Positions 28,101-34,929 of a DNA stretch of 59,592 bases are shown here, piece by piece; positions within the stretch are counted from its first letter, which is position 1; the number at the start of each line of letters is the position of its first letter. The stretch is from Opitutia bacterium. GTDB lineage: Bacteria; Verrucomicrobiota; Verrucomicrobiia; Opitutales; T3Sed10-336. The position numbers and the translations under genes were made by a program. The DNA lies in the NCBI GenBank assembly GCA_050506795.1, contig JBJHCF010000030.1:6145-65736 (forward strand), written 5' to 3'. The notes beneath the pieces were generated by a model that searched no databases, was not told the DNA's origin, and worked only from the letters and a program-made list of their open reading frames with translations.

Positions 28101-28823
28101 TCACCACCACCAGGAAGGATGAGTAACTACTGACCTAAGTCGCAACTCGGAGAATTCGCGCCACTCAACCGTGCCGTCCATGTAGAGGATATTTCCACCA
28201 GCGGGACGGTCGCCATTCATGTGGTTGGTGCGTAGCAAAGGCTCCGTCAGCCACCCTTGAATTCCCATAAAATCCGAATCGACCGTATTTCCCAGGGAGA
28301 TCACCGCGTCCACTGCAAGTTCTCGTTCGCTTTCGGGAATCACCACCGATTCCGGCGTATGGCCCAGGTAAAACACGGTCTGTTCACCCAGATACCGATT
28401 CCCGTACCTGGAATCAATTCCCGCAGTCCCGTCAAACAGCAGAAGATAGGTTAGTGCACGGAAACCTGAATTGACAGCGAATTCCCACATCTCGTCCGCC
28501 AATTCCACCGGCCCCGACGGGCAATAGAACGATTCTTTTGTCACGGCTCCCGTAGCCTTCAGGCGATCCACAATACTGACATCCACATCCCATGCCCAGT
28601 TTCCGGTGTATTTGACCGGAAACCGCTTATCGTTTTGCTGCGCGTCGATGTGCACGGCCATGCCGATTTGACGCAGATTCGACGCGCACTGCGCGCGGTT
28701 CACCATCTCGCGCCCGGAGTTGAAAGCCGGTGCCAGCACGGCGGTCAGCACCGCAAGAATCGCAATAAACACCAACAGTTCGATCAAGGTGAATCCGTAT
28801 GAGGAGGTCTGTTTTGTCGTCAT
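28101..28823 (-). CDS. Prepilin-type N-terminal cleavage protein, H-X9-DG/DUF1559-like, paralog 1
   Basis: [25 protein letters not shown]…GGNILYMDG; ends PSWWW. Confidence 0.85.
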
Positions 28824-28996
28824 GGGAGTATCAGGATGGTGAGTCGCGTTTTCTCTCGCCACAAGGCGATCCCATAAGGACATTCCCTTTCTCGCAGGTC
28901 AAGCGCTTGCTCCGCCGCCACTGAAGAAGAGACCCCCTCGCAATTTCTTATAGGCACCCGAACCGCGCCACCCCAATAGACAGCCACCACCCCCGA

Positions 28997-29032
28997 CGAC
29001 AATAAAACTATCAGCTGATAGTTTTATTGTCG
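28997..29032. repeat. Perfect 36-bp palindrome (PaaX-associated family, copy 1)
   Basis: CGACAATAAAACTATCAG|CTGATAGTTTTATTGTCG. Confidence 0.92.
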
Positions 29033-29205
29033 CAACGGAGGGAAGTGGCGAATCGGGATTGCAGCGCCTATTCCTTGTGATTTACCGAAAAATCCCAATC
29101 ACTTTGCCAGGCAATATATCTTTGACAGGCTTGACGGCTGATTCCGGTGATTCGTTGATGCCACAGCGTTGGCCGACCGGTAAACGAATGCGGTCCGCAA
29201 GCAAA

Positions 29206-29934
29206 CTACCACCACCAACTGGGAACGCTCTGTGTCCTAACCTGCATCTCCGAAAACTCGCGCCACTCAACCGTACCGTCCATAAAGAGTATATTCCCTC
29301 CCGCCGGACGATCACCGTTCATGTGATTGGTGCGATGCATCCCCCCCACCAGCCCGCCCTGAATCTCCATAAAATCTGAATCGACCGTACTCCCCGTAGA
29401 AAGCACGGCGTCCGCCGCGAGTACCCTCTCGCTTTCCGGAATGATCACCGGTTCCGGCGCACCGCCGGGCAAAACCACCATTTGCGGCCCCAACTCACGA
29501 TTCACGTACCATGGCAGAACTCCAGCGGTACCGTCGAACAGAATCACATAGGTCAAAAGCCGGAAACCGGAATCGTCACCGAAAACGGCGAAATCCCACA
29601 TTTCGTCTAAAAATTCAACCGTTCCCGACGGGCAGTACAACGTCTCCTTGGTCACGGCGCCGGTGGCCAACAAACGATCCACAATACTGGCATCTATATC
29701 CCATGGCCAAAAACCGTGTGATTTGACCGGAAACCGCTTGTCGTTCTGCTGCGCGTCAATGTGCACGGCGACACCGATCTGCCGCAGATTCGACGCGCAC
29801 TGCGCCCGGTTCACCATTTCGCGGCCCGAGTTGAAAACCGGTGCCAGCACGGAGGTCAGAACCGCAACGACCGCCAACAACACCAACAATTCAATCAGGG
29901 TAAATCCGGACGGGATGTGCTTTTCAAATCTCAT
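29206..29934 (-). CDS. Prepilin-type N-terminal cleavage protein, H-X9-DG/DUF1559-like, paralog 2
   Basis: Same motifs as paralog 1; ends PSWWW. Confidence 0.85.
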   Translation of the reverse strand: MRFEKHIPSGFTLIELLVLLAVVAVLTSVLAPVFNSGREMVNRAQCASNLRQIGVAVHIDAQQNDKRFPVKSHGFWPWDIDASIVDRLLATGAVTKETLYCPSGTVEFLDEMWDFAVFGDDSGFRLLTYVILFDGTAGVLPWYVNRELGPQMVVLPGGAPEPVIIPESERVLAADAVLSTGSTVDSDFMEIQGGLVGGMHRTNHMNGDRPAGGNILFMDGTVEWREFSEMQVRTQSVPSWWW

Positions 29935-29973
29935 GATCGGTAATATTCCAGCCGAGTCGATCAATAACTGCCT

Positions 29974-30720
29974 CTACCACCACCAGGAAGGGCCGGCTGT
30001 GACACGAAACGCCATATCGGCGAAACTTCTCCATTCCACCGCCCCGTCCAGGTAAAGGACATTGCCGCCGGCGGGCCGATCGCCCTTCATGTGATTGGTG
30101 CGATGCGGTTCGGGAGAGCCTCCCATAATCCCCATGAAACTTGCATCCGCAGACGAACCAATGGACATCACGGCATCTACGGCCAACACGCGCTCGCTTT
30201 CCGGAATGTCGACAGCGACGGGATTCCGGCCACCGAGCGTAATAGTCTGATCCCCCAACCTCGGATTCCAGTATTGCTGGGGAATTCCCGGCGAGTTGTC
30301 AAAAATCAGCACATACGTGATTATGGAAAAAGTAGTTTCGGGATTATGGAACCCAAAATGCCATTCCCATTCCCCTTCCGAACCGGTGTTATCAGCATCC
30401 CATGTTCCGGAAGGACAATAGAACGTTTCCAGTGTCAGCGCTCGCGTGGCCATAAGTTGATCCAACACCAAGAGCCGGGTGTCCCACGGCCACAATCCAA
30501 CACCAGCTTTATCAGGCAACGCCTTGTCGTTCTCTTGAGCATAAAGGTGGGTCGCGACAGCTATCTGACGCAGATTCGACGCGCACTGCGCACGGTTCAC
30601 CATCTCGCGGCCGGAGTTGAAAGCCGGGATCATTATCGCGCTCAGTACCGCAATAATCGCCAACAACACCAACAACTCAATCAGGGTAAATCCGGACGGG
30701 GTGCTCCTGCTTCTTTTCAT
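29974..30720 (-). CDS. Prepilin-type N-terminal cleavage protein, H-X9-DG/DUF1559-like, paralog 3
   Basis: Same motifs as paralog 1; ends PSWWW. Confidence 0.85.
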   Translation of the reverse strand: MKRSRSTPSGFTLIELLVLLAIIAVLSAIMIPAFNSGREMVNRAQCASNLRQIAVATHLYAQENDKALPDKAGVGLWPWDTRLLVLDQLMATRALTLETFYCPSGTWDADNTGSEGEWEWHFGFHNPETTFSIITYVLIFDNSPGIPQQYWNPRLGDQTITLGGRNPVAVDIPESERVLAVDAVMSIGSSADASFMGIMGGSPEPHRTNHMKGDRPAGGNVLYLDGAVEWRSFADMAFRVTAGPSWWW

Positions 30721-30872
30721 GGGAGTGATCGGTAGGTTTAGTGGGCTTACAAAGCAATCCGATAAGAACATGCCATGTCCCGTAAGTCAAGCGATTGCTC
30801 CGCCGGTGGTTAAACCGAATCCCGAAACAAAACCACACCCGGTTTTAAAGCATATCCGAACGAAGAAGGTTG

Positions 30873-30942
30873 TCACACGGAGTCACGGAGTCACGGAGAT
30901 TTCATCCGGACCAGCCTCCGTGTGCTCCGTGACTCCGTGTGA
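30873..30942. repeat. Palindromic element with CACGGAG periodic arms (family C)
   Basis: TCACACGGAGTCACGGAGTCACGGAG … CTCCGTGTGCTCCGTGACTCCGTGTGA. Confidence 0.8.
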
Positions 30943-31169
30943 GCCCAATTTCTGCTGTATTGAAGGACTGGCTGAAAACACAACAAAGCAGAATTAACAG
31001 GAACGGACCGTCGCGATGGAATCATAACCGCATAGCACCTCGCTTGAGCCGTTGAGCGATCCCGCGGCAAACGAGGTACACAGGCTTTTTCGCTTGCCCC
31101 ATTTGCCCATCATCTGTTGTTTTTATTCCGTCGCTTATCGCCTCTCCCACCCATCTTCCCTTCCCGATC

Positions 31170-33647
31170 ATGAAAACCCTACCGTTTTTCCTCACCGTCC
31201 TGGCAACCGGCCTCACCGTATCTTTAGTATCGGACACCGTCGCGGACATCCCCTCGCACAGCCCGAGCGATCCCGGAGCGACCGGATCGCACCTTTTCGG
31301 CGTCACCGTTTTCGACAACGCCGTGTACTCCGCCGGGCGAACCCAAACCATCCTGCGCTCGGACGCGGCCGGGACCTGGACCGCCGAGCGATTGGAGTTG
31401 GAGGACGAAAGCTGGCGGGGGATCGCCCAGGACGGCGAACGCGTCGTGGCGGCGGGACGCAACGGCGGGATCGCCGTTTCGAATGACGGCATCGAATGGC
31501 AAACCTTCGAGGAGGTCTCCGGGGAAAGGCTGACGGGCCTCACCCACCTGGCCGGCCACTTCTGGGCGTATGGTGAGACGGGAACCCTGCTTCGCTCCGC
31601 CGACGGTATCGATTGGGAGGCCCAGGCAACCGGATCGGTCCAAACCTTGCGGGGCATCGCCTTCGACCCGGGCACCAGTCGGTACGTCGTGGTCGGGGAT
31701 ACCGGAAACGTTCTCATTTCAACCGACGGCGAGCTTTGGCAGGCCCACGAAACCGATCCGGCGTGGGAGTTTGTCGATGTCGCTTACGCCACCGCGGGAT
31801 TCATCGCGGCGGCGCGCGGCGGCCGAGTCTTGCGGTCAACCGACGGTGAATCATGGACCCTGCTGCAAGAATCCATCGGCCACGAACACCTCGGCGCGAT
31901 CGCCTACGGCAACGGCCACTACGTGATCGCGGGCGGGTTGGGCCAGGATACGGTTTTTTTTGTCTCCGACAACGGCGATGCCTGGCAGGAAGCGCAGGTC
32001 CCTCTGCCGGCACTCATCACCAACCTCACCTTCGTCGATGACCGTTTCCTCGCCGCCGGTTATTCCGGAACCGTCTTGCAATCGAACAACGGTCTCGATT
32101 GGGAAATCCTGCACACCGCCATCCGCACCGACGTCTTCGGGCTCGCCGAAACCGCAGACAACCACCGGGTCGCCGTGGGCGAACACGGGCAAATCCTCCA
32201 CTCGACCGAAGGGGGCTCATGGAGGCGAGTTCCTTTGCCCAATGCCGACTGGCTCTGGGACATCGCCAAAGGCGACGGAACCCTGGTGGCGGTGGGGGAT
32301 AATGGCGCCATACTGCGCTCCACCGACGGCGAACAATGGCAACGCATCGAAATTTCCGATACGGCAAGGCTCGGGTCGGTGGCTTACGGGGAGGGCCGGT
32401 TTCTCGCGGTGGGAGAAGACGGAGTCGCATTGCGTTCCGACGACGGCGGCCTCTCCTGGGAAAGCGGATCGCTTCCGGGAGGACGCATGTATTGGTCGCT
32501 CACCTACGGCAACGGCTCCTGGGTTGCGGTCGGAGAAAACGCCGTCGCCGTGTCGCCCGACGGCCTGGACTGGGAAGAAACACTGTTCGACGAAGCCGTA
32601 ACCCTCAACGCGGTCGCTTTTCTCGAAGGCGAGGGGTTTGTTCTCGCCGGCTCGCAGTTCGCATTCGAGGATGGCGCGGTCACCGTTGAGTTTGCCGGAT
32701 GGCTCGCGCATAGCGAGAATGGCCAGAATTGGGAGATCCTGCCTCCACAACCCGGCGTCTCCTGGTGGACCGCTTCCGGCGGCGCCGGATGGTTGAGCGC
32801 TTTTAGCCCCTACGGTGAAGCCGCCCTCTCCGCCGACGGTCGTGAATGGGAGGTTACCGAACTCTTGCCCGCGGACACCCCGTTCGCCTCGGAAGGCTGG
32901 GTCAACACGGTGCACACCGGCGAACAAGGCGTCACCCTGACGGGTCGCAACACGATGACCCATATTTACGCTCTGCCGCCCCTGATCCGCGCACTCGCCG
33001 GCGACCACACCGTGGACCTCCTGGGCGAAGTCACCTTGTCCGGTGAATCCGGCGGGACCGGACCTTTCACGTATCAATGGTTTCGTGACGGCGTTCCACT
33101 GGATGGCGAAACCGACCCCACCCTCCACTTGAACGAAGCCGATCGCGACGCCATCGGCGACTACCTTCTGCAAGTCAGCGGCCCGGGCGGCCAAACCCAA
33201 AGCCCCGCCGTCCTGCTGGTGGTGCGTTTCGACTACGACGCCTGGGTCGCCGCCACCTTCGACGAGTCCGCCTCGCCGGAAACCACCGAACCAGGGGCCG
33301 ACCCCGAAAACGTCGGTGTCGCGAATCTCCTGGCCTACGCCTTCGACTCCGACCCCGCCTCCACGCGGTCGCTCCTGCCCCAAGCCGCCATCGAAACCTT
33401 GACCGTCGACGACCAGGAAGCCGCCTACCCCACCCTCACCTTCACTCGCTCCCTCGGCGTCGACGACCTTACCTTCCTGCCGGAGTCTTCCGAAGATCTG
33501 CAAACCTGGACCCCACTCCCCCTGGAACAGATCGTCCGCGTCGAACGCTCCGGCACCCGCGAACTCGTCACCATCCGCGGCGCCACCCCCCTCACCGAAA
33601 ACACCCCCCCGACATTCTTCCGCCTATCCGTCAAACTCGAAGACTAA
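31170..33647 (+). CDS. Secreted beta-propeller-repeat protein with an Ig-like domain and PVC-type C-terminal domain
   Basis: Signal peptide, many VAVG..G.ILxSxDG..W repeats, TYQWFRDG…GDY Ig motif, tail NLLAYAF…SEDLQTW…FFRL. Confidence 0.8.
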   Translation: MKTLPFFLTVLATGLTVSLVSDTVADIPSHSPSDPGATGSHLFGVTVFDNAVYSAGRTQTILRSDAAGTWTAERLELEDESWRGIAQDGERVVAAGRNGGIAVSNDGIEWQTFEEVSGERLTGLTHLAGHFWAYGETGTLLRSADGIDWEAQATGSVQTLRGIAFDPGTSRYVVVGDTGNVLISTDGELWQAHETDPAWEFVDVAYATAGFIAAARGGRVLRSTDGESWTLLQESIGHEHLGAIAYGNGHYVIAGGLGQDTVFFVSDNGDAWQEAQVPLPALITNLTFVDDRFLAAGYSGTVLQSNNGLDWEILHTAIRTDVFGLAETADNHRVAVGEHGQILHSTEGGSWRRVPLPNADWLWDIAKGDGTLVAVGDNGAILRSTDGEQWQRIEISDTARLGSVAYGEGRFLAVGEDGVALRSDDGGLSWESGSLPGGRMYWSLTYGNGSWVAVGENAVAVSPDGLDWEETLFDEAVTLNAVAFLEGEGFVLAGSQFAFEDGAVTVEFAGWLAHSENGQNWEILPPQPGVSWWTASGGAGWLSAFSPYGEAALSADGREWEVTELLPADTPFASEGWVNTVHTGEQGVTLTGRNTMTHIYALPPLIRALAGDHTVDLLGEVTLSGESGGTGPFTYQWFRDGVPLDGETDPTLHLNEADRDAIGDYLLQVSGPGGQTQSPAVLLVVRFDYDAWVAATFDESASPETTEPGADPENVGVANLLAYAFDSDPASTRSLLPQAAIETLTVDDQEAAYPTLTFTRSLGVDDLTFLPESSEDLQTWTPLPLEQIVRVERSGTRELVTIRGATPLTENTPPTFFRLSVKLED

Positions 33648-33713
33648 TCCCCTCCACACCCACCCTTCACCCCACCACCCCCCAAACTACCTTCAAATAC
33701 CCCCAACTACCCT

Positions 33714-33751
33714 GCGACAATAAGATTATCAGCTGATAATCTTATTGTCGC
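33714..33751. repeat. Perfect 38-bp palindrome (copy 2), 36 nt upstream of the PaaX-like gene
   Basis: GCGACAATAAGATTATCAG|CTGATAATCTTATTGTCGC. Confidence 0.92.
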
Positions 33752-33787
33752 GGACCTTTCGGGACAATTGCACCGAGGACCTACCCC

Positions 33788-34576
33788 ATGAAAGCCTCCA
33801 CCGAACTTTTTCTCTGGGAAATGCTGTCGATAGCGGAAGCCCTTTTCTACCCCTCGTACCGGTACGCTGATGAAAGCTTTGAAGGATGGGCATACCGTAA
33901 GGGGCTACTGCGACAGATTCAGCGGCTTGAGGCACAGGCCTACCTGGAACGGCAACCCGGAGGGAGTGCGGACAGGGTTTACCGGCTCACCCCGAGGGGA
34001 CGACTCGCGGCTCTCGGAGGCAGGGATCCGGAACAGTGTTGGCAACGCCCGTGGGATGGACGCTGGCGCCTATTGATGTTCGACCTGCCCCAGGCACCAC
34101 AGACCCCAAGAGCCCGGTTGCGAAAAGTGCTCAAAGAACACGGGCTGGGATGCCTCCAGGGAAGCGTTTGGTTATCGCCCGACTCACTCGAACCGCTACG
34201 CAAACAACTCAAAGGTGACCGCCATCCATCCTCGCTACTGCTGTTTGAGGGAAGTGCAACCGGCGGGGAGAAAGCATCCGAGTTGGTCCGCGAAGCCTGG
34301 GATTTCGACGCGATCCACAACGACTGGGCCGCCTACCGGAACATAATCCGACGGGGCAGGGAATTCCTCAAAGGCAAAAAAATCGATCCGGATGCATTCC
34401 GCGAGTGGTCGCAAAGCCGTCACAGTTTGTGGAAACTGATAATTGAACAAGATCCATTTCTGCCATCACCGCTCCTGCCCAGGAAGTACCCGGGAAGAAA
34501 GGTCTGGAAAGAACACAAAAACCTCTGCCGACAAATCCCCGTCCACCTCAAAAAATACGGCTTCAAAAAATCCTGA
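33788..34576 (+). CDS. PaaX-like protein (wHTH, Cas2-like central fold, PaaX C-terminal domain)
   Basis: YRLTPRG, WDGRWRLLMFDLP, R..LRK.L…G.G.LQGSVWLSP, AWDF and DPFLP..LLP motifs. Confidence 0.82.
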   Translation: MKASTELFLWEMLSIAEALFYPSYRYADESFEGWAYRKGLLRQIQRLEAQAYLERQPGGSADRVYRLTPRGRLAALGGRDPEQCWQRPWDGRWRLLMFDLPQAPQTPRARLRKVLKEHGLGCLQGSVWLSPDSLEPLRKQLKGDRHPSSLLLFEGSATGGEKASELVREAWDFDAIHNDWAAYRNIIRRGREFLKGKKIDPDAFREWSQSRHSLWKLIIEQDPFLPSPLLPRKYPGRKVWKEHKNLCRQIPVHLKKYGFKKS

Positions 34577-34679
34577 TCCACCAGACACTCCATCGCCAAC
34601 CACCGCTCAATTCAGCCGATCCAACCTGACTCGCCGCCCTAGGAAGCCCTCCCCCACCTCGAACCCCCTTTCAGATTTC

Positions 34680-34717
34680 GCGACAATTGAATTATCAGCT
34701 GACAATTTAATTGTCGC
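34680..34717. repeat. 38-bp palindrome with 2 mismatches (copy 3), downstream of the PaaX-like gene
   Basis: GCGACAATTGAATTATCAG|CTGACAATTTAATTGTCGC. Confidence 0.9.
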
Positions 34718-34900: not shown

Positions 34901-34929
34901 TTGACAATGGACGGGTATTGGACGAGAAT
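34901..34929 (+). promoter_or_regulatory. Possible sigma70 promoter
   Basis: TTGACA-17 nt-GAGAAT, just upstream of a GTG at 34937. Confidence 0.35.

Follow-up and report, generated by a model that had tools for sequence, protein, structure and literature searches.

To our knowledge, the only well-described gene paired with its own dispersed palindromes so far is that of the repetitive extragenic palindrome (REP) systems, in which the partner is a REP-associated tyrosine transposase (RAYT) of the HUH type. In these REPtrons (a RAYT with its REP or REPIN repeats), a single-copy gene lies between its own short palindromic repeats, lone copies are dispersed in intergenic DNA, several gene-repeat pairs of matching specificity occur per genome, and the gene is not multiplied as identical copies; a GTAG/CGTC tag is a further feature (available portions of PMC3733652 and PMC5581495). 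We describe here a unit that is like REPtrons in these features of layout. It lies in a stretch of 59,592 nucleotides from an Opitutia bacterium (the window), where a gene for a PaaX/Cas2-like protein (33788-34576) is bracketed by two palindromes of 36-38 bp. Comparison of sequences leads us to favor, with modest confidence, the reading that this is a REPtron-like selfish cassette in which a PaaX/Cas2-like protein takes the place of the tyrosine transposase.

The two systems differ in the protein, which is a PaaX/Cas2-like winged-helix protein here and an HUH Y1 transposase there, and in the form of the repeats. The palindromes here are spacerless, end in CGAC...GTCG, and have neither the GTAG/CGTC tag nor the looped imperfect stem of REPs; they are dispersed and intergenic, but at 5-24 copies per genome rather than hundreds. 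A classical REP/RAYT system was rejected because the gene is PaaX-like and because the 16 Y1_Tnp (PF01797) matches in the genome, several with open frames of ~320 aa (e.g., C36:50038-50379 and C35:37974-38303), lie away from the palindromes, none of the 16 being beside one.

With Escherichia coli PaaX (8a39) the protein shares the same three-domain fold and a DPLLP...LLP C-terminal motif; unlike E. coli PaaX, the family has retained two motifs of the Cas2 type, F-D-x-P and Q-x-S. With the sequence TGATTC-N27-GAATCA, the E. coli PaaX site measures 39 bp in all, and, as far as the available part of its description goes, the palindromes resemble it in having inverted half-sites of similar overall span, 36-38 bp (PMC9493321). 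Unlike that site, they are palindromic over their whole length, repeated on both sides of the gene, and dispersed. The middle domain superposes on Cas2, with weak similarity over the first strand and helix and with the strand-1 Asp kept; unlike Cas2, it falls below the Cas2 model cut-off and shares its chain with a winged helix and a helical domain. A further likeness is to integron attC cassettes and Acinetobacter dif modules, in that a single gene stands between short, partly palindromic sites in varying contexts, with a junction of 3' end, site, and 5' start as found in genome G410; unlike in those cassettes, the sites here co-vary with the cassette's own protein, and no link to an integrase or Xer was found, although none was tested for. 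In the literature searched, on PaaX with inverted repeats or mobile elements and on REPs in Verrucomicrobia, PaaX and Cas2 appeared together in no paper and the layout was described nowhere. The palindrome-bracketed PaaX/Cas2-like cassette looks to be undescribed so far.

The unit in the window and its protein

The window (G000:C30:6145-65736) belongs to a genome, G000, of 4.94 Mb in 82 contigs, with 59% G+C and 97.8% completeness. The pattern CGACAAT-N6-ATCAGCTGAY-N6-ATTGTCG is matched in it at 28997-29032, 33715-33750, and 34681-34716, against an expectation of 0 from 100 dinucleotide-preserving shuffles. An earlier note, made from the letters of this DNA, had reported three spacerless palindromes, and these are real; its 33714-33751 and 34680-34717 are the second and third sites plus one outer G/C pair, and palindrome copies are mostly 38 bp once this extra pair is counted. 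Palindromes 1 and 2 are perfect, whereas the third has two arm mismatches. Folded as single-stranded DNA, the two perfect copies reach -15 and -17.8 kcal/mol, respectively (z -8.2 and -10.3).

The bracketing of a PaaX-like gene that the same note had claimed was borne out. The whole unit occupies 33714..34717 on the + strand, ~1.0 kb, and consists of a palindrome, a 37-bp leader, the PaaX/Cas2-like gene (33788..34576, +), a 104-bp trailer, and a second palindrome. The upstream bracket (33715..33750, no strand assigned) has arms of 18+18 nt, or a length of 38 nt when the outer G/C pair is included. It ends 38 bp ahead of the ATG, and because of this position it is a likely binding site for self-repression. 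The downstream bracket (34681..34716, likewise without strand) starts 104 bp past the stop codon. A promoter scan identified no sigma-70-like site overlapping palindrome 2 or 3, the sole match being at 34901-34929, 185 bp beyond palindrome 3. Reading the palindromes as intrinsic terminators was rejected, with 0 T-run terminators found.

The 262-aa product of this PaaX-superfamily gene matched Pfam PaaX_M (7e-17) and PaaX_C (1.6e-6), and the gene is single-copy in G000 (one match genome-wide). An AlphaFold model built from a 30-sequence alignment (mean pLDDT 84.5) predicts three domains: an N-terminal winged helix, a Cas2-like middle domain (residues ~87-167), and a helical C-terminal domain. 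The top solved Foldseek match of this model was E. coli PaaX (8a39, E 3.9e-10), followed by Rv0674 (3kfw) and a Jannaschia protein (3l09); Cas2 chains matched the middle domain only, with a probability of 1.00 over 74-93 columns. A true PaaX ortholog was rejected, because the protein scored 57.1 bits against a TIGR02277 cut-off of 264.55 and a search of the 97.8%-complete genome for PaaA/PaaC gave none. The absence of phenylacetate genes around the locus, stated in the earlier note, held: there were none in the eight neighboring open reading frames (ORFs) scanned, and PaaA_PaaC (PF05138) was not found genome-wide. Many members of the family appear in databases under the name 'phenylacetic acid degradation operon negative regulatory protein', which is probably wrong for the members from Verrucomicrobiota.

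Three residues, D99, Q124, and S126, are invariant in 30/30 aligned family members. D99 is the Cas2-type Asp kept at the end of strand 1, which in Cas2 is the catalytic residue. In a profile alignment, the F-D-x-P motif is missing from E. coli PaaX and Rv0674 at the corresponding place. Pfam CRISPR_Cas2 was matched by 10 of the 30 family members; the window protein itself gave weak, sub-threshold Cas2 matches at residues 93-128 (TIGR01573, 20.2 bits vs. a cut-off of 24.5), and a scan of it against a defence-system library returned weak Cas2 matches only. No cas genes were found in the eight neighboring ORFs scanned; CRISPR arrays were not searched for.

The same layout in related genomes

Homologs were found in three of the 11 other genomes of the window's taxonomic family (G004, G009, and G005), and 29 genomes of other families in the order yielded none. 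All three homologs are palindrome-bracketed, and the palindrome varies with the protein. Where G000 has the centre ATCAG/CTGAT (the slash marks the midpoint), the palindrome of G004, whose protein is 61% identical to that of G000, reads CGACAATAATTTTAGCAG/CTGCT... with the centre AGCAG/CTGCT, and that of G009 (68% identical) reads ...TTCCCAG/CTGGGAA.... The palindrome of G005 (54% identical) has a wholly different sequence, ACCGAAAAATCGGGCA-NN-TGCCCGATTTTTCGGT. The genes that flank the unit differ among these four genomes.

Searches of the class and phylum used an alignment; a single-protein query had found one locus. In the class Verrucomicrobiae the family is present in 43 of 401 genomes, with up to six paralogs per genome. 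Counting as bracket palindromes those with arms of at least 14 nt, no more than two mismatches, and a spacer of no more than two, we examined 33 homologous loci of the class and found a palindrome upstream in 25, downstream in 23, on both sides in 20, and on at least one side in 28, although in one of the loci counted under both sides (L019) the downstream hairpin is unrelated and G+C-rich. Palindrome density was 3.0 per kb next to the gene, compared to 0.06 per kb in the remainder of the 33 loci. The upstream palindrome ends 8-81 bp before the start codon (~35 bp in most loci), and the start of the downstream palindrome varies between 20 bp within the ORF and 165 bp beyond its stop. Beyond it, the next gene is convergent in 16/33 loci, according to a crude caller based on G+C at the third codon position; the downstream palindrome is therefore not a promoter operator for the next gene.

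The specificity of this pairing is repeated within genomes. In three multi-paralog genomes, cognate palindromes stood on both sides at 10 of 16 loci, and each paralog's palindrome was different, the paralogs within single genomes being 30-61% identical. A scan of the phylum added eight loci, three with cognate palindromes on both sides and six with at least one. By contrast with these loci, none of four actinobacterial plasmid PaaX-family loci taken as an outgroup had bracket palindromes; three of the four had a gene for an FAD-dependent monooxygenase just downstream, and two had one for an aromatic-acid transporter upstream. Phage records gave no match, and plasmid records gave only distant actinobacterial PaaX-family genes. 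Since each paralog has its own adjacent palindrome, across the phylum, the comparison indicates that protein and palindrome are functionally coupled. Whether homologs carry their own flanking palindromes was a check that the earlier note had proposed, and the counts for the class and for the paralogs answer it in the affirmative.

Unit boundaries, lone copies, and arm symmetry

The clearest view of the unit as a block comes from two genomes of the same genus, G410 and G370, which are 85% identical over exactly 895 bp, from outer palindrome edge to outer palindrome edge. The flanks of the two units are mutually unrelated, and each is found elsewhere in the other genome at 71-73% identity; in G370, the two flanks of the G410 unit are on separate contigs. 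Across 12 pairs of loci compared, including same-genus pairs, flanks were unrelated in 11, with G319/G429 as the sole syntenic pair. The fixed locus with catabolic genes that would have spoken for an ordinary regulator was thus not encountered, and no catabolic neighbors were found in the window's family. Truncated pieces of the unit stay joined to palindromes: G009 has a palindrome with the first ~185 bp of the gene, which match the intact copy at 74% identity; G370 has a gene 3' end with a palindrome; and G410 has both a gene 3' end-palindrome-gene 5' start arrangement and another 3' end alone with its palindrome. At one locus with identical flanking genes in two sister species, the arrangement in G005 is palindrome-gene-palindrome, and that in G008 is a single palindrome with an unrelated gene of 300 aa.

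Counting sites within nine substitutions of the consensus, G000 holds 13 palindrome copies, of which two are the brackets and 11 are lone. The lone copies have only the 36-40 bp palindrome in common with the unit, and none of the 11 has a gene remnant beside it. Arm mismatches number zero in two copies, one in two, two in five, three in three, and six in one. The site set holds 58 bits of information, compared to the 19.5 bits that would suffice for 13 sites in this genome. The genes near the copies have no common theme (pilin-like, GH43, two epimerases, GNAT, BlaI-like, carbonic anhydrase, and the 3' end of gyrA), and three of the 13 copies lie between converging 3' ends, namely gyrA/exonuclease-like, lyase-like (or a short ORF)/SCO4226-like, and TetR/cupin. 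Flanks of the copies are unrelated, except that C7:137263, C7:139611, and C25:75495 have ~55 bp in common on one side. Two of these copies with the shared 55-bp extension bracket, in direct order, a 2.3-kb stretch (G000:C7:137263-139646); a 353-aa ORF in this stretch had no Pfam or PADLOC match and a weak TorF-porin match only. The third copy with the same extension is the one at C25:75495.

Copies were also counted in other genomes, brackets included: 24 in G004, 12 in G005, five in G009, seven in G280 (a closed genome of 6.0 Mb), eight in G139, seven in G410, and six in G370; G008 has 10 and a degenerate one. One palindrome position is common to the sister species G009 and G011. For 30 palindrome loci of G001, G004, G009, and G011, a flank match in G000 was found for 23, and only three of these matches fell within 3 kb of a G000 site, two of them being the PaaX-like gene and one a paralog-level match (34-38% identity). 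Judging from these flanks, the positions of lone sites are not conserved between genera. Among 39 classifiable sites in four genomes, 26 were tandem, seven divergent, and six convergent by crude gene calls; a further 11 sites of the same genomes were at contig edges and four inside a called ORF.

The earlier note had also argued from compensatory change, in that the variable six nucleotides of one arm are mirrored in the other. This is partly so: copy 2 has a mirrored A>G/T>C change, and in copy 3 the first position is mirrored but further changes are not. We shuffled arm pairings 2000 times and counted the shuffles that reached the mirrored count. G000 had six mirrored and 25 one-arm deviations (163/2000 shuffles), G004 had five and 20 (3/2000), G009 had seven and zero (1/2000), G008 had one and three (96/2000), and G005 had no mirrored and eight one-arm deviations. 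The argument from mirrored changes is therefore weak in G000 and significant in the relatives G004 and G009. All five copies in G009 are perfect palindromes that differ from one another, and perfect yet different variants occur in G139, G370, and G410 as well. Symmetry also extends into copy-specific sequence, with arms of 30 nt downstream and 19 nt upstream in G009 and of 38 nt upstream in G005. These patterns point to some process that keeps both palindrome arms alike. Quasi-palindromes tend to be 'corrected' by template switching during replication, and the likeness of the arms could come from selection on a hairpin or cruciform or equally from such correction. Covariation of the arms can arise without a hairpin-reading protein, and symmetry alone is no proof of hairpin recognition.

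Palindromes were also associated with breaks in the assemblies. In G000, 4/13 lie within 1 kb of a contig end (C7 end, C45 end, C25 end, and C30 start; binomial P = 7e-4), and public contigs of the probable source sample break inside both perfect palindromes, with other flanks at the other copies. Since assemblies are broken by the unit at its palindromes, counts of it from binned genomes are likely too low. Three of these four contig ends (C45, C25, and C30) overlap the ends of other contigs by 99-126 bp. An insertion sequence was rejected as the source of these overlaps, which we read as branching of the assembly graph and which may represent strain-level structural variation beside the palindromes.

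Within the window, the lone palindrome at 28997..29032 (no strand assigned) is identical to the genome consensus and has no gene remnant alongside. It is situated 114 bp upstream of one DUF1559 pilin-like gene, ORF 28101-28883(-), and 173 bp downstream of another, ORF 29206-29964(-). These are the first and second of three tandem paralogs (28101-30771, -; 260, 252, and 265 aa), all of which encode a prepilin methylation motif at the N terminus and the start of DUF1559. The PaaX-like gene has as neighbors genes for beta-lactamase-like, pilin-like, beta-propeller, YbjT-like (with DUF2867), and DUF1294 proteins. A second, unrelated repeat family is present at 30870-30955 as an inverted repeat of tandem GTCACGGA units (CACGGAGTCACGGAGTCACGGAG ... 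CTCCGTGACTCCGTG). The genome has 12 occurrences of its 15-mer on the two strands together, and contig depth at this place in the source sample is 46.7, compared to ~12 nearby, with loose ends at 30867 and 30909. Elsewhere, the palindrome of window positions 28996-29033 was found with one difference and with different flanks on an unrelated soda-lake metagenome contig (run X2). In the genus of G005 and G008, the palindrome is often within a longer non-palindromic repeat of 60-240 bp, and a separate repeat of 150-220 bp (L102 1684-1903, G005:C109) occurs in at least 15 places in G008.

Explanations for the paired gene and palindromes

The earlier note had left two branches, a selfish or mobile unit and a new regulator with its operators. 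The presence of own flanking palindromes, the lack of a fixed locus, and the lack of catabolic neighbors favor the former. The layout recurs across the phylum together with scattered lone copies, and we therefore favor a selfish or mobile unit over an ordinary regulator. The protein would act as a dimer held together, like that of PaaX, by its Cas2-like domain, with the winged helices on two 18-bp half-sites, as its fold and the 39-bp PaaX site suggest. The position of the upstream palindrome, ~35 bp before the start codon, is consistent with self-repression. The downstream palindrome may serve as another binding site, closing the unit by looping or insulating it and marking its right end. Comparison of the genomes shows that the block from palindrome to palindrome is what is inherited and relocated. 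Lone copies are copies by descent and not independently evolved operators, as their excess information, non-conserved positions, and 3'-3' locations show; they may arise by collapse of the unit through recombination between its two palindromes or by separate seeding. As to the chemistry of spread, the candidates, both speculative, would be the Cas2-like domain with its Cas2-type Asp or host recombination or replication at the palindromes.

Several observations weigh against a selfish cassette. The patchy distribution (43/401 genomes) is itself partly unreliable. Most of the genomes used are binned metagenome assemblies, and a unit between repeats yields contigs of ~1 kb that are easily lost in binning, so that 'not found' counts are weak; many of the listed family members are on contigs of 0.9-1.6 kb, and in G008, G001, and G011 there are palindromes but no PaaX-like gene was detected. 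Copy numbers of 5-24 per genome are the size of a regulon and far below typical REP families. In G000, ten of the 13 sites either lie upstream of a gene or fall at a contig edge, and some of them may therefore have a regulatory role. Five lone sites are common to the sister species G005 and G008, which argues for slow turnover. A symmetric PaaX-type dimer would also bind a zero-spacer perfect palindrome as ordinary duplex, on the available text of PMC9493321, and the PaaX fold together with the 39-bp E. coli site makes duplex binding by a dimer the simplest assumption.

The marks of recent movement are likewise incomplete. No target-site duplication was seen by eye beside the 13 G000 copies, and no genome had two near-identical whole units; with paralogs only 30-61% identical, there is no sign of recent self-copying. 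Compared to insertion sequences, the unit has defined ends and varying contexts but neither near-identical copies nor target-site duplications. The earlier note had proposed a test for sporadic synteny with empty sites; flanks were unrelated in 11/12 pairs, but no clean empty site emerged from four G005/G008 attempts or at the YbjT-like ortholog. For the G005 sites, the flanks of L096 are 140 kb apart in G008, L103 is occupied by a degenerate copy, and those of L102 and L098 were matched on one side only, adjoining a contig end. The YbjT-like ortholog in G002, of the same genus as G000, has a different upstream gene, no palindrome, and broken synteny. Mapping of source-sample contigs and one run with a small share to the window revealed no excision or circle joint.

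Many of these points would suit an ordinary self-regulated repressor of the PaaX superfamily, responsive to a ligand, with the brackets as looping operators, the lone copies as a small regulon, and relocation as genome flux. We consider this the main rival explanation, though an unlikely one. It accords with the PaaX fold, with a site span of 36-38 bp near the 39 bp of the E. coli site (available part of PMC9493321), with the upstream copy ~35 bp before the ATG in most loci, with 5-24 sites per genome, with ten of the 13 G000 sites upstream of a gene or at a contig edge, and with the retention of sites between sister species. It accords poorly with a downstream copy at or just past the stop codon where the next gene converges in 16/33 loci, with three of 13 sites in 3'-3' gaps, with neighboring genes that have no theme, and with site positions that differ between genera although the half-sites are conserved; the pure regulon branch of the earlier note fits poorly in view of the convergent genes, the 3'-3' gaps, and the differing positions. 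The sites also hold three times the information needed, truncated gene pieces are still joined to palindromes, and similarity stops exactly at the outer palindrome edges. A plain regulon has no explanation for the downstream copy, sharp boundaries, truncated pieces, 3'-3' sites, non-conserved positions, and threefold information excess; we take these as marks of a selfish gene-plus-repeat unit.

Movement or recombination of the palindromes could instead depend on an enzyme unrelated to the unit, be it a recombinase of the host (Xer-type or other) or one of the genome's Y1 transposases, with the PaaX-like protein as passenger or regulator, as in dif modules and integron cassettes. No recombinase or transposase chemistry is recognised in the protein, G000 has 16 Y1_Tnp matches, the 3' end-palindrome-5' start junction in G410 would be expected from tandem or circular cassettes, and a different gene is beside the palindrome at one locus in the sister species G008. 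We nevertheless find this explanation improbable, as 0/16 Y1_Tnp matches are beside a palindrome and as crossover at the centres of differing palindromes would yield asymmetric hybrids, yet perfect differing copies are common. Each paralog has its own palindrome type, so that specificity goes with the PaaX-like protein rather than with a host enzyme common to all paralogs. Very improbable, in our estimate, is a role of the palindromes as RNA hairpins that stabilise or terminate transcripts, with the Cas2-like protein binding or cutting RNA. Cas2 proteins were first described as RNases, the two perfect copies are strongly stable (z -8 to -10), and one copy comes right after the stop codon, as do many REPs; however, there is no T-run terminator, the upstream copy precedes the gene, lone copies occur in divergent promoter gaps, and the protein has the N-terminal winged helix of a DNA-binding repressor family.

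If a selfish cassette is the better description, its behavior at the level of the genome would be that of REP/RAYT systems with an unrelated protein, one that joins a repressor-type winged helix to a Cas2-like domain with Cas2 signature residues. It is doubtful, in our view, that the PaaX/Cas2-like protein itself cuts or recombines DNA at the palindromes through the Cas2-type acidic site and so defines a new class of mobile element. Were this true, palindromes would delimit the cassette, a 'transposase' with a Cas2 fold and a winged helix would move it, and the lone palindromes would be footprints or landing sites of the element. The protein would then be a free-living relative of a possible ancestor of both Cas2 and the PaaX repressors, and a new transposase class would link Cas2, PaaX regulators, and mobile DNA. 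Should the protein do no more than bind DNA, the unit would be a selfish repressor-operator pair that spreads its own sites, a route by which regulatory sites may be seeded across a genome. Under either reading, the Verrucomicrobiota entries named as phenylacetate regulators would carry the wrong name.

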